Positions 1,915-16,951 of a stretch of 16,951 nucleotides of DNA are shown one piece after another. This DNA comes from a virus. Each line of letters opens with the position of its first letter. The stretch's first letter is position 1. Position numbers and translations under genes: made by a program. The notes below the pieces were generated by a model that worked only from the letters and a program-made list of their open reading frames with translations, ran no database searches and was not told the DNA's origin. Location: UHGV virus genome UHGV-0280597. One strand, given 5' to 3'.

Positions 1915-2586
1915 TCACCCATCTTGCTGCGGTGCTACTATTGAAAAGTGCTCACACCCTTTAGCCCAAATAGTTTTGATAGTTGTCCAACTGACTGGAA
2001 CCTTGATTTCGATTCTCCCGCTACAGTCACAAGTTTCGCAATCATCATCACCAAAGCATTCCGGGCAGCTTATAAACGTAGTTTCTGAAAATTCACCGGA
2101 TAGCACACCCTTAGCGCCGTTCTCGGCTGTTAGTCTCTTCGGCACCATGACCCAACCATCCGGAATTACCGGAGAGTTGCCGGGTTCTTTAATGTGCAAG
2201 CGAGGCTCACCATCTTTTGGCTCAGGCCACTGGCGCTCCATGTTGATCTTCAATTTATCTTCCATAGCAGCGGTAATTTCAGCATCGCTGATGCCAGCAC
2301 GGCGCTGTGAATCCCACAACAGAAACTGCATATCAGCCCACTCGCTAAGATCGTCTGGTTCGGCTGCGGCTTCCAGTGCCTCTTTTGAGAGGTGTTTCAG
2401 TGGACCAATGGGGCCAACGCAGCCAAATGTGGAGTCAGACCATTTGGCATGCTCGTGGCGAATCTGTTCGCGTTCCAGTGATGCCAGTGCAATTCGTGCC
2501 AGTTCCATTTGTTCGCCACGAGTAAGCCCGTTTTCAAGCGGATTTTTAATGAATAATTCGATACGTTCTTTGGTAATAGTGGTCAT
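1915..2586 (-). CDS. hypothetical protein with C-terminal Cys cluster (possible zinc ribbon), 223 aa
   Basis: ORF-track ORF; AAGGTG 8 nt upstream of the ATG at 2586; C-terminal motif CPECFGDDDCETCDC; tentatively similar to phage DUF551-type proteins from recall only. Confidence 0.55.
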   Translation of the reverse strand: MTTITKERIELFIKNPLENGLTRGEQMELARIALASLEREQIRHEHAKWSDSTFGCVGPIGPLKHLSKEALEAAAEPDDLSEWADMQFLLWDSQRRAGISDAEITAAMEDKLKINMERQWPEPKDGEPRLHIKEPGNSPVIPDGWVMVPKRLTAENGAKGVLSGEFSETTFISCPECFGDDDCETCDCSGRIEIKVPVSWTTIKTIWAKGCEHFSIVAPQQDG

Positions 2587-3917: not shown

Positions 3918-4400
3918 TTATTTGATAAGAAGTGAAGGTTTCCCAACTTTGAGTTGAGCACCGGGGATATTTAATCCTGCTTTTAGTTGGTGCTTGATTG
4001 CCAACTTGTCGGCTTTAATTGTCGTTTCAAACTCAACGTATTCAGGAGGAAGGGCGCTTGAGTCGATGATTTCTACAGTTTCTGACGGTTTGCGGATTGT
4101 TACCTGGTGAATACCTGCTCTAATCTTTTTCTTGCCAACCATTTCAAGCGATGAGGCTATATATGCCATAATGCTATCAATCTTATTTTGAATTACTGCT
4201 GCTCGTTCATTCAGTGACTTTGCCTCGTCCTTGAGGCGTTCAGCATAACCAGATTCATTTTTAATAATGGCGAGAAGTTGCTCTATTTTATCGGTAAATT
4301 CTCCTTCCATGCCTTCTATTGTGTCAGCAATCATCTCTGGTTCTAAATCTGAATCCATCAATTTTGCGTATTCATTGGCTATTTCATATAGTTTGCTCAC
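3918..4400 (-). CDS. Siphovirus Gp157-like protein, about 160 aa
   Basis: ORF-track ORF 3918..4406; likely GTG start at 4400 preceded by GGAGGT; N-terminus (V/M)SKLYEIANEY and coiled-coil character resemble the Gp157 family, which often accompanies phage recombinases (recall only). Confidence 0.5.
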   Translation of the reverse strand: MSKLYEIANEYAKLMDSDLEPEMIADTIEGMEGEFTDKIEQLLAIIKNESGYAERLKDEAKSLNERAAVIQNKIDSIMAYIASSLEMVGKKKIRAGIHQVTIRKPSETVEIIDSSALPPEYVEFETTIKADKLAIKHQLKAGLNIPGAQLKVGKPSLLIK

Positions 4401-5286
4401 TGGCAACCTCCAGTTTCGCTTTGCATTCTATGTAAATGGCTTGTACGTTCTGCTGCAATTTCATTCCAGATGTCAGGCGATATGCTTCTGCAAAATATCG
4501 TTTCAAATCATCCATGTTTTCTGCCTGAGCCATTTCATCACAAAGAAGTTGTGCTTTTTCCATTATTTCCTGCTGGCGTTTCCGTTCATCTTCGCGGATA
4601 TCTTCCTCTGATTTGTGCGGCATAACTGGTTCCTGATGCATACCTTCATCTTCGTTAAGCAGGTGAATGGCATTATCCAGTCGCTGGGCTTTAGGCCAGT
4701 ATTTGCTGGCGCGTTTAACTATTGTTTTACGCGCCATCTCTTCCCAGAATGTCTTCCACGGTCCATTCTTTGCCTTGCTCGTTGCTTCCACAGCTTTAAT
4801 TTCTGCCAGACTCATTTCTTCAGTCAGGTAGTCACCATCTGCTGTTTTAACCGTGCAATAACCACCAACAATAGAGCCTCGCTCACCAAATGCGTTGTAT
4901 TTGTGGGTTGGCGCTGAATCAAGGCCGTTTGATTCATAGGTGTCGTTTGAGTACACCAGTTTACATTGCCCCCACTTAATTGATCCTGTCGACTGTGCAA
5001 GGTGAAGTAATCCCATATAGCTGATATCAAGGCAAACCATGCCGTCGCGCGGAACTAGATAAGCAAGTTTGCTGGCCGGGTTTAAGGTGATGCCGATCGC
5101 CGCAACATTGATGATGGCGTTCTGTGCGCTGGTTGGATTTGCCAGTGCCGTTTTAGCCAGGTAATCATTTTTCTGGAAATACTGAATTGCAAACTGGCTT
5201 TCCTTAGCCCATGTCACCGTCTGTTCAGTCAATGCTCCGCAGAATAACTGCTCCTGCTGTTTAACGAATTCAACGATATTGCTCAT
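4384..5286 (-). CDS. recT: RecT-family single-strand annealing recombinase, 300 aa
   Basis: ORF-track ORF; size and sequence resemble RecT/Red-beta-type annealases (recall); occupies the lambda bet position; ATGA overlap with the upstream gene. Confidence 0.8.
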   Translation of the reverse strand: MSNIVEFVKQQEQLFCGALTEQTVTWAKESQFAIQYFQKNDYLAKTALANPTSAQNAIINVAAIGITLNPASKLAYLVPRDGMVCLDISYMGLLHLAQSTGSIKWGQCKLVYSNDTYESNGLDSAPTHKYNAFGERGSIVGGYCTVKTADGDYLTEEMSLAEIKAVEATSKAKNGPWKTFWEEMARKTIVKRASKYWPKAQRLDNAIHLLNEDEGMHQEPVMPHKSEEDIREDERKRQQEIMEKAQLLCDEMAQAENMDDLKRYFAEAYRLTSGMKLQQNVQAIYIECKAKLEVASEQTI

Positions 5287-5594: not shown

Positions 5595-5675
5595 CTTTCT
5601 CCTGTTCTTTGTGCTGATTGAGCATTTTGTTCATCTGACGAATGAATTCTTCGTCTGACCAGTTATCTGTAAAAC

Positions 5676-5846
5676 TCATGGGCGGCCTTGTTGTTTCAAA
5701 ATATCCCAAAGCTTTTCGAGCAAACTTTTCATTCTTGGTTGTTTAAAGTCTGCTCCGGTTAGAATGTTTTTTCTTGAATGCTGTACCGATAAAATCGGGT
5801 TGAAAGGGCGAACCGATGCCGCCCCTGCAATAGCGAACTGTTGCAT
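5676..5846 (-). CDS. cIII: CIII-like protein (putative FtsH inhibitor), 56 aa
   Basis: Not in the ORF track (under 60 aa); manual translation MQQFAIAGAASVRPFNPILSVQHSRKNILTGADFKQPRMKSLLEKLWDILKQQGRP; AAGGAG 6 nt upstream of the ATG at 5846; N-terminal MQ-x-AIAG and C-terminal amphipathic L-x-K-L-W-D-I-L-x-Q-x-G-x-P match my recollection of lambda/P22 CIII. Confidence 0.5.
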   Translation of the reverse strand: MQQFAIAGAASVRPFNPILSVQHSRKNILTGADFKQPRMKSLLEKLWDILKQQGRP

Positions 5847-15111: not shown

Positions 15112-15296
15112 ACGCCACAATTCAAACGATACCAGAGCTTCTTATCCAGACACGAGGCAATCAGACCGAAGTGGCGAGGATGCTTTCCTGCGCAAGAGGA
15201 ACAGTGCTCAAGTACAACCGAGACAGCAAAGGCGAGCGTCATGTAATAGTTAACGGCGTCCTGATGGTCAAACAGGGCAAGAGGGGAAGACGATGA
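15108..15296 (+). CDS. ninH: NinH-like small DNA-binding protein, 62 aa
   Basis: ORF-track ORF; GNQTEVARMLSCARGTVLKYNRDSKGERHVIVNGVLMV resembles lambda NinH (recall); overlaps the rusA stop. Confidence 0.75.
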   Translation: MNATIQTIPELLIQTRGNQTEVARMLSCARGTVLKYNRDSKGERHVIVNGVLMVKQGKRGRR

Positions 15297-15916
15297 GACT
15301 CGAAAGCGTAGCTAAATTTCATTCGCCAAAAAGCCCGATGATGAGCGACTCACCACGGGCCACGGCTTCTGACTCTCTTTCCGGTACTGATGTGATGGCT
15401 GCTATGGGGATGGCGCAATCACAAGCCGGATTTGGAATGGCTGCATTCTGCGGTAAGCATGAACTCAGCCAGAACGACAAACAAAAGGCTATCAACTATC
15501 TGATGCAATATGCACACAAGGTATCGGGGAAATACCGTGGTGTGGCAAAGCTCGAAGGAAATACTAAGGCAAAGGTACTGCAAGTGCTCGCAACATTCGC
15601 TTATGCGGATTATTGCCGTAGTGCCGCGACGCCGGGCGCAAGATGCAGAGATTGCCACGGTACAGGCCGTGCGGTTGATATTGCCAAAACAGAGCAGTGG
15701 GGGAGAGTTGTTGAGAAAGAGTGCGGAAGATGCAAAGGTGTCGGCTATTCAAGAATGCCAGCAAGCGCCGCATATCGCGCTGTAACGATGCTAATCCCAA
15801 ACCTTACTCAACCCACCTGGTCACGCACTGTTAAGCCGCTGTATGACGCTCTGGTGGTGCAATGCCACAAAGAAGAGTCAATCGCAGACAACATTTTGAA
15901 TGCGGTCACACGTTAA
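15293..15916 (+). CDS. Q: Q late-gene antiterminator, 207 aa
   Basis: ORF-track ORF; sequence MRLESVAKFHSPKSPMMSDSPRATASDS...CRDCHGTGR...CGRCKGVG matches my recollection of lambda Q very closely; followed by a pR'-like promoter and terminator. Confidence 0.9.
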   Translation: MRLESVAKFHSPKSPMMSDSPRATASDSLSGTDVMAAMGMAQSQAGFGMAAFCGKHELSQNDKQKAINYLMQYAHKVSGKYRGVAKLEGNTKAKVLQVLATFAYADYCRSAATPGARCRDCHGTGRAVDIAKTEQWGRVVEKECGRCKGVGYSRMPASAAYRAVTMLIPNLTQPTWSRTVKPLYDALVVQCHKEESIADNILNAVTR

Positions 15917-15958: not shown

Positions 15959-15987
15959 TTGACTTTTTGAATAAAGTTGGGTAAATT
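15959..15987 (+). promoter_or_regulatory. late promoter pR' (TTGACT-17-TAAATT) with Q-utilisation region
   Basis: TTGACT at 15959-15964, 17-bp spacer, TAAATT at 15982-15987; same hexamers as lambda pR' (recall); immediately downstream of Q. Confidence 0.65.
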
Positions 15988-15994
15988 TGACCCA

Positions 15995-16186
15995 ACGATG
16001 GGTTAATTCGCTCGTTGTGGTAGTGAGATGAAAAGAGGCGGCGCTTACTACCGATTCCGCCTAGTTGGTCACTTCGACGTATCGTCTGGAACTCCAACCA
16101 TCGCAGGCTGAGAGGTCTGCAAAATGCAATCCCGAAACAGTTCGCAGGTAATAGTTAGAGCCTGCACAACGGTTTCGGGATTTTTT
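15995..16186 (+). ncRNA. 6S-like short late leader transcript (pR' to tR'), about 190 nt
   Basis: Interval from the predicted pR' start to the tR' U-run; length and sequence correspond to the lambda 6S RNA as I recall it. Confidence 0.5.
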
Positions 16187-16190
16187 ATTT
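16130..16190 (+). terminator. tR' intrinsic terminator
   Basis: Long compound hairpin TCCCGAAAC...GTTTCGGGA (16130-16138/16172-16180) with inner GCAGG/CCTGC pairing, followed by TTTTTTATTT. Confidence 0.75.
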
Positions 16191-16265
16191 GGGTCAGTCG
16201 TATAAAGGTCATTACGGAAGGCTGTTAACCTTCTTATCGTGGTTCGAGTCCACGCTGTCCCGCCA
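16191..16265 (+). tRNA. tRNA-like gene, anticodon GTT (Asn), 75 nt with encoded CCA
   Basis: Manual fold: acceptor GGGTCAG/CTGTCCC (one U-U mismatch), D-arm GTAT/TTAC (one mismatch), anticodon stem GAAGG/CCTTC with loop CTGTTAA, T-arm CGTGG-TTCGAGT-CCACG, discriminator G, CCA. Confidence 0.5.
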
Positions 16266-16270
16266 AATAT

Positions 16271-16346
16271 GCTGGTTTAGCTCCAATGGTAGAGCAGTCG
16301 CCTTGTAAGCGAATGGGTAGCGGTTCAAGTCCGTTAACCAGCACCA
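16271..16346 (+). tRNA. tRNA-like gene, anticodon TGT (Thr), 76 nt with encoded CCA
   Basis: Manual fold: perfect 7-bp acceptor GCTGGTT/AACCAGC, D-arm GCTC-CAATGGTA-GAGC, anticodon stem GTCGC/GCGAA (one mismatch) with loop CTTGTAA, T-arm AGCGG-TTCAAGT-CCGTT, discriminator A, CCA. Confidence 0.6.
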
Positions 16347-16568
16347 TAACTGAGCCGTAGCCACTGGCTATCCTGAATTCATCAGTGATAGTTATGCTGC
16401 GGCCTTCTACACATGACCTTCGTGAAAGCGGGTAGCAAGAGGCTGCGCTAACAACCTCCTGCCGTTTTGCCCGTGCATATCGGTCACGAACAAATCTGAT
16501 TACTAAACACAGTAGCCTGGATTTGTTCTATCAGTAATCGACCTTATTCCTAATTAAATAGAGCAAAT

Positions 16569-16584
16569 CCCCTCAATGAAGGGG
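16569..16584 (+). promoter_or_regulatory. stem-loop just upstream of the holin dual start (sdi-like translational control element)
   Basis: CCCCT-caatga-AGGGG hairpin ending 7 nt before the ATG at 16591; analogous position to the lambda S sdi structure (recall). Confidence 0.4.
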
Positions 16585-16590
16585 TAGAGC

Positions 16591-16794
16591 ATGTACCGTA
16601 TGGACAAAATCAGAGAATGGTTCAGTTACAGCTTCGGAGGACTGACTGCGATGGGTGGCATTCTCTCCCTGAATGACTGGGCTGTCATCATTGGTATTCT
16701 TTGTACTGTCGGCACATTTGGCATCAACTGGTACTACAAGCGCAAAGAGCGCGAGGACAGATTGAATGGCAATGTCACCGGCACTACGAAATAG
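16591..16794 (+). CDS. holin with dual-start motif (M1-Y-R-M4), two TM helices, 67 aa; pinholin-like
   Basis: ORF-track ORF; two in-frame Met codons separated by a basic residue (MYRMDK); two hydrophobic helices; immediately precedes and overlaps a SAR endolysin. Confidence 0.75.
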
Positions 16795-16951
16795 CGTAAT
16801 AGCGGCGATAAGTGGCGGGGCTATTGCTATAGCATCTGTGTTAATCACTGGACCAAGTGGTAACGATGGTCTGGAAGGTGTCAGCTACATACCATACAAA
16901 GATATTGTTGGTGTATGGACTGTATGTCACGGACACACCGGAAAAGACATC
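16766..16951 (+). CDS. SAR (signal-anchor-release) endolysin, N-terminal 62 codons; truncated by the window end
   Basis: Manual translation [62 protein letters not shown]; Gly/Ala-rich weakly hydrophobic SAR segment then lysozyme-like start, resembling phage 21 R21 (recall); overlaps the holin 3' end. Confidence 0.85.

Follow-up and report, generated by a model that had tools for sequence, protein, structure and literature searches.

The two adjacent tRNA genes in the late leader of this lambdoid genome probably form a functional cassette, which supplies nuclease-resistant replacement tRNAs together with the late transcript. Annotation of such genes is routine; it is their context that matters. 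The window, i.e., the whole stretch of 16,951 nt that was analysed, contains exactly two tRNA genes according to ARAGORN, both on the + strand. The features of the region are as follows:

15293–15916, + strand: late antiterminator Q of the lambda type, 207 aa (ORF list; alignment to lambda Q and its flank)
15959–15987, + strand: late promoter pR', TTGACT-17-TAAATT (promoter scan; aligns almost identically with the lambda pR' region)
16130–16190, + strand: terminator tR', end of the 6S-type leader (RNA fold, identity to lambda, raw sequence)
16191–16265, + strand: tRNA-Asn(GUU), 75 nt, discriminator G, encoded CCA (ARAGORN, Rfam)
16266–16270, + strand: spacer AATAT between the tRNAs, 5 nt (raw sequence)
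16271–16346, + strand: tRNA-Thr(UGU), 76 nt, discriminator A, encoded CCA (ARAGORN, Rfam)
16348–16590, + strand: lambda-like late leader, from AACTGAGCCGTAGCCACTG up to the holin ribosome-binding site (alignment to lambda, Kapi1 and Sf6)
16591–16794, + strand: holin, first late gene downstream, 67 aa, different from lambda S (ORF list)
16766–16951, + strand: start of the endolysin, an RrrD-type lysozyme, which continues past the end of the window (raw sequence)

A sequence-only reading of this DNA had described two tRNA-like genes with the anticodons GTT and TGT at this position, and our data confirm this. In addition to the ARAGORN calls, both passed the gathering score of 29 of the Rfam model RF00005, with 55.3 bits (E = 8.9e-10) for tRNA-Asn and 61.5 bits (E = 1.8e-11) for tRNA-Thr, and inspection of the raw sequence confirmed that the CCA ends are encoded in both genes. 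The pair also starts immediately after tR', as had been proposed: the hairpin (16130–16180) folds as expected and is followed by the U-run (16181–16190), the last base of which directly precedes G1 of tRNA-Asn. A five-way alignment verified that the pair replaces a segment of lambda. The window follows lambda through the U-run and then contains about 160 nt of unrelated sequence, at the position of a 163 nt filler in lambda. Similarity to lambda is back at 16348, starting AACTGAGCC / AACTGAGCCGTAGCC, in agreement with the predicted position of about 16350. An attP or integration-site remnant was considered for the two genes and rejected, since both tRNAs are complete, including CCA, and are located in the late leader at a great distance from any integrase.

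The window Q shares 99.5% identity with gp54 of HK446, a protein annotated as lambda-Q-like, and the site homologous to the window pR' is labelled lambda PR'-like in the HK446 annotation. The promoter scan revealed no promoter-like site between pR' and the tRNAs, so that Q-dependent readthrough of tR' would be the natural expression route for the pair, as judged from its position. Homology to lambda stops just upstream of the holin start. The holin is small, with a size like that of phage 21, and may belong to class II as read from its sequence; matching E. coli prophages label it 'phage holin family protein'. The endolysin is labelled 'rrrD: lysozyme RrrD' in these prophages, and its N-terminus looks like what we take to be a SAR signal-anchor. 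Overall, the window represents a mosaic lambdoid prophage with an early region like that of HK140, mEpX2, and HK620 and a recombination module of the RecT/Gp157 type.

Both tRNAs have a 7 nt anticodon loop (CUGUUAA in tRNA-Asn, CUUGUAA in tRNA-Thr) with U33 and a purine at position 37, and canonical T-loops (T-arms GUGGUUCGAGUCCAC and GCGGUUCAAGUCCGU). Their 3' ends are G-CCA and A-CCA, respectively. The identity elements for recognition by the cognate synthetases are well established, and applied to the window sequences they are found as G73 and GUU for AsnRS in tRNA-Asn and as G1-C72, C2-G71, and G35-U36 for ThrRS in tRNA-Thr. The anticodon arm is GAAGG/CUGUUAA/CCUUC in tRNA-Asn and GUCGC/CUUGUAA/GCGAA in tRNA-Thr. 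The latter includes a G27-A43 mismatch and a U28-A42 pair. The U-U mismatches that had been noticed in tRNA-Asn are real and were assigned to U4-U68 in the acceptor stem and U13-U22 in the D stem. The second tRNA had been described as folding cleanly, which has to be corrected, since the G27-A43 mismatch tops its anticodon stem.

The Asn/Thr pair is already known and routinely annotated, which the sequence-only reading had missed. Both tRNAs show no difference (100% identity) to the alleles of coliphage 21, phage Sf6 of Shigella, and Kapi1, and the whole 156 nt pair has an exact match in HK446. A 251 nt region including the pair matches 77 phage records, and GenBank and RefSeq records of the phage 21/Sf6 group annotate tRNA-Asn and tRNA-Thr. 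Among 5,426 complete E. coli genomes, 369 (about 7%) contain the pair, labelled as tRNA-Asn and tRNA-Thr by PGAP. In phage 21, Sf6, HK446, Kapi1, BTP1, and their relatives the order of the genes, the 5 nt spacer, and their position between the late terminator, which they directly follow, and the lysis genes are as in the window. P22 lacks these tRNAs (PMC8022706). To survey IMG/VR we used an anchor on the conserved sequence just downstream of the pair, which is present in at least 120 loci. The pair was found in 58–59 of 117 informative loci, and the other 58 lack any tRNA. In these 117 loci the two genes occur together with constant spacing or are both missing, and a single gene was never observed. 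The pair can follow either type of Q, as a 21-type terminator precedes it in about 44 loci, and the lambda-type tR' arrangement of the window is shared by about 13 of the 58 pair loci surveyed. The window thus resembles HK446 and Kapi1, with the pair behind a lambda-type Q/pR'/tR' and not behind the 21-type. E. coli prophages exhibit presence or absence of the pair between identical Q and lysis flanks. In the window the pair precedes the small holin and the RrrD-type endolysin, and this exact combination of three modules is present in only 2 complete E. coli genomes. The lambdoid Klebsiella phage ST101-KPC2phi6.1 has an Asn-Phe-Thr-Arg array in this slot, flanked by antiterminator and holin; its Asn and Thr copies are true homologues of the window pair.

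The tRNA-less loci have their own structure at this place. All 58 share a frame consisting of TTGTGNTGA, a hairpin, and C(R)(S)CACAAC-CCA directly abutting the same downstream anchor. At the junction where the CCA of tRNA-Thr ends in pair-bearing loci, the fillers end in CACAAC-CCA. About five insert types can be distinguished, and the closing stems covary. No Rfam family was detected in the alternative fillers at the gathering threshold, and an ARAGORN call in intron mode was forced and unconvincing. The commonest filler type (e.g., locus L009, 2865–2991) reaches 26.7 bits (E = 0.0012) with the Rfam tRNA model; it retains intact acceptor, D, and T arms and has a 74 nt insertion in place of the anticodon arm. 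The slot therefore appears to be occupied either by a pair of true tRNAs or by an element of tRNA origin. The 163 nt filler of lambda was also considered as a decayed form of the pair and rejected, since the global alignment is only z = 1.2 above shuffled sequences; no tRNA signal was found in this filler even at E ≤ 10.

For tRNA-Thr, one member of the pair, a function is already published (2025–26). P2 Old, the effector of the classic P2-lambda interference, kills by cutting the host tRNA-Thr(UGU), encoded by thrU, which is the sole UGU tRNA of E. coli. Cleavage occurs after C28 and C40, both of which lie in paired CNG motifs within the anticodon stem (Govande et al. 2025, PMC12445682). Phage alleles of tRNA-Thr(UGU) rescue cells attacked by Old, and the tRNA-Thr of phage 21 (Thr21) protects Old+ Gam+ cells and resists Old in vitro, nearly completely at site 1. 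In Thr21 the anticodon stem is shortened, and base pairs close to the two cut sites are changed (PMC12445682). In an independent study, HK446 Thr(UGU) brought the plating of HK97, HK542, and Bas34, all sensitive to OLD, back almost to the wild-type level (Derzhaev et al. 2026, bioRxiv 10.64898/2026.07.10.737580). These rescue experiments used plasmid-expressed tRNA, and extra host thrU, unlike the phage alleles, gave little or no protection against Old (PMC12445682; bioRxiv 10.64898/2026.07.10.737580).

The tRNA-Thr of the window is identical in sequence to the tested alleles Thr21 and HK446 Thr(UGU), without any difference. It thereby joins a set of Old-resistant tRNA-Thr(UGU) molecules that comprises the alleles tRNA-Thr6, Thr21, T4, Bas32, Bas33, and HK446, and its shortened anticodon stem and altered CNG motifs are the described determinants of resistance. 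Where the host tRNA has CUG/CAG and U39, the window tRNA-Thr has UCG/CGA and G39, and its U28-A42 pair matches the C28U/G42A swap that was tested in thrU (PMC12445682). The in vivo rescue by the identical sequence implies that this tRNA is functional. The earlier hint at an anti-defence role is hence backed for tRNA-Thr by published experiments on the very same sequence (PMC12445682; bioRxiv 10.64898/2026.07.10.737580). Thr(UGU) is P2 OLD's primary target, a prime target of AriB, and a secondary target of HepS. Besides Thr tRNAs, HepS of Gifsy-1 also targets those for Ile and Ser, but not Leu tRNAs (PMC13043305).

For tRNA-Asn a comparable function can be suggested from its sequence. AriB, the effector of PARIS, cuts at 40|41 in Lys(UUU) and Thr(UGU), and less strongly in Asn(GUU), and a change of U39 in tRNA-Lys abolishes this cleavage (Belukhina et al. 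2025, PMC12409363). In comparison to the host tRNA, the tRNA-Asn of the window has AAG/CUU instead of CGG/CCG, by which both CNG motifs are lost, and C39 instead of U39. Both window tRNAs thus lack U39 and the CNG motifs of the host. Asn(GUU) is a secondary target of AriB and is cut more slowly by OLD. We infer that tRNA-Asn may do for this secondary target what tRNA-Thr does for Thr(UGU). The set of tRNAs that OLD depletes more than 2-fold does not include Asn (bioRxiv 10.64898/2026.07.10.737580), and the Klebsiella homologue of tRNA-Asn regained a paired CNG motif (CAG/CUG).

Phage T5 needs its trio of Lys, Thr, and Asn tRNAs to neutralise PARIS (PMC12409363). Thr(UGU) and Asn(GUU) of this trio are shared with the window, and in both phages these tRNAs have lost the U39 beside the AriB cut site. 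T5 however has Lys(UUU) and a near-complete tRNA set that is expressed early, compared to two late-leader tRNAs here. Since tRNA-Lys(UUU), the main target of AriB, is missing from the cassette, the cassette cannot neutralise the characterised PARIS system alone. In a uniform draw of two anticodons from about 40 classes, both would be among the three main targets of AriB in about 0.4% of cases (by arithmetic), but the uniform draw is a generous assumption, given how often Thr(UGU) and Asn(GUU) occur in the tRNA sets of phages.

Another view of the pair would be that of a neutral or decaying passenger, i.e., hitch-hiking tRNA pseudogenes without current function. The two U-U mismatches of tRNA-Asn fit this view, as do a few damaged singleton alleles (U33A, a G>U change of the discriminator, and a 1 nt deletion in the anticodon stem in locus L058), and the first tRNA had indeed been suspected to be weak or decaying. 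To judge this, we can compare nucleotide diversity over 57 loci, which was 0.008 for the tRNA-Asn body and 0.014 for the tRNA-Thr body, but 0.10 for the 5 nt spacer and 0.12 for the downstream non-coding DNA. Variability is about 10-fold lower within the tRNA bodies than in the flanking sequence, and the commonest polymorphism of the pair region is a T>C change in the spacer AATAT. The mismatches U13-U22 of tRNA-Asn and G27-A43 of tRNA-Thr are fixed in all 57 loci each, and U4-U68 of tRNA-Asn is present in 55 of them, with U-C in the remaining two. In the acceptor stem of tRNA-Thr a compensatory exchange of G5-C68 for U5-A68 was found in 4 loci. The Klebsiella homologues show compensatory changes at pairs 6-66, 7-65, and 28-42 of tRNA-Asn and at pairs 3-70 and 6-67 of tRNA-Thr, and keep the U4-U68 mismatch of tRNA-Asn and the entire anticodon arm of tRNA-Thr. 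With 55 bits, low diversity, and mismatches that are fixed or nearly so, the suspicion regarding the first tRNA does not hold: both genes are real, constrained tRNAs, and tRNA-Asn is not decaying. The complete sequence identity across otherwise mosaic phages and the rescue of cells by tRNA-Thr in the published experiments also argue against a passenger. This interpretation is largely refuted by the constraint data, and we regard it as hardly credible.

Codon supplementation, which had also been suggested, is a more serious alternative to the supply of nuclease-resistant tRNAs, but still an unlikely one. It assumes that extra decoders of ACA and AAC/AAU speed up translation of the late structural proteins, with no defence system involved. 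Such an effect would fit a host with thrU as its only UGU tRNA, and 24 of the 25 Asn codons in the capsid gene of phage L are AAC (PMC8022706). The phage genes contain 11.9–13.8 ACA codons per 1000, compared to 3.5 in 31 genes for ribosomal proteins and elongation factors and 9.5 in 20 ordinary K-12 genes. However, the late genes downstream of the slot in 22 pair-bearing loci and 23 pair-lacking loci do not differ in their use of ACA (11.9 versus 12.3 per 1000, p = 0.59) or Asn codons (42.5 versus 40.3 per 1000, p = 0.28), and the same comparison revealed no difference in the AAC fraction or in AAA (p about 0.28 or higher throughout). The Asn codon use of the phages (42–44 per 1000) is that of the host (33–43; about 43 in ordinary genes). 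The host has several tRNA-Asn genes, four of them in K-12. Moreover, sequence matters and not dose alone, because the phage alleles protect against Old where extra host thrU barely does or does not. Codon use thus lends little support to the earlier hint at supplementation, which is compatible with our main explanation and may add a benefit for ACA decoding, but does not explain the pair. We consider it even less probable that the pair merely punctuates RNA processing, with decoding being incidental. A tRNA-shaped site for RNase P and 3' processing in the late leader would separate the 6S-type leader from the mRNA for lysis and structural proteins and set the 5' end of this mRNA. The structured element that occupies the same slot with the same junction in all 58 tRNA-less loci would agree with this, and so would the tRNA-model score of the commonest filler, which has no anticodon arm. 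This mechanism leaves unexplained, however, why anticodons, identity elements, and the unusual anticodon arm of tRNA-Thr are conserved in phages of Escherichia, Salmonella, and Klebsiella, and why a tRNA expressed in trans rescues cells; furthermore, no tRNA signal is detectable in the lambda filler.

We therefore return to a cassette of nuclease-resistant tRNAs, for which the following scenario can be drawn. The pair would be transcribed from pR' only when Q allows RNA polymerase to pass tR', and RNase P and 3' trimming would release the tRNAs, as suggested by their position. The encoded CCA ends should make the released tRNAs immediately usable. OLD-family Toprim nucleases cut the anticodon stem of the host tRNA-Thr(UGU) and thereby halt translation at ACA codons. 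The phage tRNA-Thr is a resistant substitute for the tRNA from the single-copy thrU of the host, as published for the identical sequence, and would sustain ACA decoding during late protein synthesis. Its resistance would be due to the shortened anticodon stem (G27-A43), U28-A42, UCG/CGA, and G39. The tRNA-Asn may do likewise for the secondary target of the same nucleases. A boost of ACA decoding would be a secondary benefit, ACA being a rare codon that is more frequent in phage than in host genes.

Several observations do not easily fit this scenario. Expression and processing of the tRNAs from the native late leader are not known (PMC8022706). The timing is awkward for counter-defence, since Old is triggered early and the cassette is Q-dependent and thus late; Q and the N-like gene contain 4 and 2 ACA codons, respectively, and both have to be translated before the cassette can be expressed. 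The viral Thr(UGU) tRNA alone failed to rescue lambda or recB toxicity, and the escape of HK446 itself from Old was credited to the protein Oad2 (bioRxiv 10.64898/2026.07.10.737580). A homologue of Gam, the trigger of Old, was not found in the window by tblastn, Pfam, or PHROGs, nor were homologues of Abc2, Erf, or Oad2, and the window holds only a 21 aa Gp33-like fragment.

Taking the pair and the slot together, a broader view is possible, which we put forward tentatively and do not regard as the probable outcome. The pair would be a two-component counter-defence cassette against OLD-family Toprim tRNases, and the slot a tRNA-derived site. The targets would be P2 Old, AriB of PARIS, and their relatives, and tRNA-Asn would be a nuclease-resistant replacement as much as tRNA-Thr. 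Such a role of tRNA-Asn would explain the strict co-inheritance of the pair. The tRNA-like element of the sister phages that lack the pair could then act as a processing signal or as a nuclease decoy.

Temperate lambdoid phages and, through their prophages, about 7% of the complete E. coli genomes carry a tRNA that is resistant to P2 Old. This helps to explain which lambdoid phages can spread among carriers of P2-like prophages or PARIS satellites. If tRNA-Asn is also nuclease-resistant, the cassette would represent a natural "tRNA repair kit" for Toprim tRNases in its minimal form, and some natural variants of Old or PARIS are predicted to depend on cleavage of Asn and Thr tRNAs, not of Lys tRNA. 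Novelty remains in the putative role of tRNA-Asn, in the fact that the pair is strictly co-inherited, and in the tRNA-like elements of the sister phages.

Similar tRNA cargo is found in other phages. Stx phages of the 933W type harbour ileZ-argN-argO between Q/pR' and stx, i.e., likewise in the late-leader slot of a lambdoid phage and co-expressed with late genes. These isoacceptors read rare Ile and Arg codons, and their traditional explanation is codon supplementation. Phage P1, like the Klebsiella phage a temperate phage of enterobacteria, has an Asn/Thr tandem with the same two isoacceptors in the same order, but in a different genomic context. The P1 copies are only distantly similar to those of the window (79.7% identity for tRNA-Thr) and, unlike these, retain the host-like motifs CUG/CAG in tRNA-Thr and UAAUCA in tRNA-Asn.

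The slot between the tR' terminator and the lysis genes is filled by other sequences in lambda and in the 58 sister loci that lack the tRNA-Asn(GUU)/tRNA-Thr(UGU) pair. All of these fillers, including that of lambda, share one frame, GCACAAC...GTTGTG(N)TG...C(N)(N)CACAAC-CCA, which forms two long-range hairpins enclosing variable inserts.

L003:960-1145 (lambda 44760-44945), together with all 58 loci that lack the pair (within L008-L127): framed fillers

The inserts are of about five types and 88-221 nt long. The closing stems covary, with GTGCTG/CAGCAC and GTGGTG/CACCAC in one set and GCCGG/CCGGC, GTCGG/CCGAC, GTTGG/CCAAC and ACCGG/CCGGT in a second set. The framed fillers matched no Rfam family.

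A tRNA-like element was observed in this slot in sister phages without the tRNA pair (IMG/VR loci).

L009:2865-2991: tRNA-like element; the same type in L022, L023, L028, L031, L052, L062, L070 and others

With the Rfam tRNA model the L009 element scored 26.7 bits (E=0.0012), slightly below the 29-bit threshold. It has intact acceptor, D and T arms and a 74-nt insertion in place of the anticodon arm, and its terminal CCA meets AACTGAGCC at the same junction.

Related tRNAs are found in three other phages.

L131:401-717: Klebsiella phage ST101-KPC2phi6.1, array of tRNA-Asn(gtt), Phe(gaa), Thr(tgt) and Arg(tct)
L130:381-452: Salmonella phage L, second tRNA, annotated as tRNA-Leu(TAA)
L132:1425-1578 (AF234173 69029-69182): phage P1, tRNA-Asn(gtt) followed by tRNA-Thr(tgt)

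The four tRNAs of ST101-KPC2phi6.1 lie in the homologous slot, with an antiterminator on one side and a holin on the other. Two of them, Asn and Thr, are truly homologous to the window pair; they show compensatory changes in the acceptor stems, and the Thr anticodon arm is the same as in the window. The "tRNA-Leu(TAA)" of phage L, for which ARAGORN gave no call, is a rearranged homologue of the window tRNA-Thr: it shares the acceptor and T arms with it, and small indels have altered the D and anticodon arms. The P1 tandem has the order seen in the window, with a spacer of 2 nt; its sequences show only distant similarity to the window pair and retain host-like motifs (CUG/CAG in Thr, UAAUCA in Asn).

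A few copies of the pair appear damaged. The Asn anticodon stem carries a 1-nt deletion in one IMG/VR locus (L058), another locus combines the singleton alleles Asn U33A and Thr G1A, and the Asn discriminator is changed from G to U in a further singleton allele. These few copies look like occasional decay in single prophages, against a strongly conserved background.

Downstream of the pair, lambda homology stops just 5′ of the holin ribosome-binding site.

16560-16951: lysis region, 67-aa small holin and RrrD-type endolysin

These two genes stand where lambda has S and R. Only 2 complete E. coli genomes gave full coverage of exactly this arrangement of Q, the tRNA pair and the lysis genes.

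Elsewhere the window encodes the following features.

3918-5286, minus strand: recombination module, RecT and a Gp157-family protein
4384-5286, minus strand: RecT
3918-4406, minus strand: Gp157-family protein (PHROGs label "Mu Gam-like end protection")
5617-5679, minus strand: start of a short ORF, beginning at 5679
1915-2586, minus strand: 223-aa ORF of the early left operon (PF04447)

No homologues of lambda Gam, Abc2, Erf or Oad2, the HK446 protein credited with escape from the P2 nuclease Old, were found in the window. The match between the start of the short ORF and HK446 Gp33, the reported Old trigger, is confined to the first 21 aa of Gp33. The 223-aa ORF is a predicted nucleotide-metabolism accessory gene, with a PF04447 domain (dATP/dGTP pyrophosphohydrolase) scoring 142 bits.
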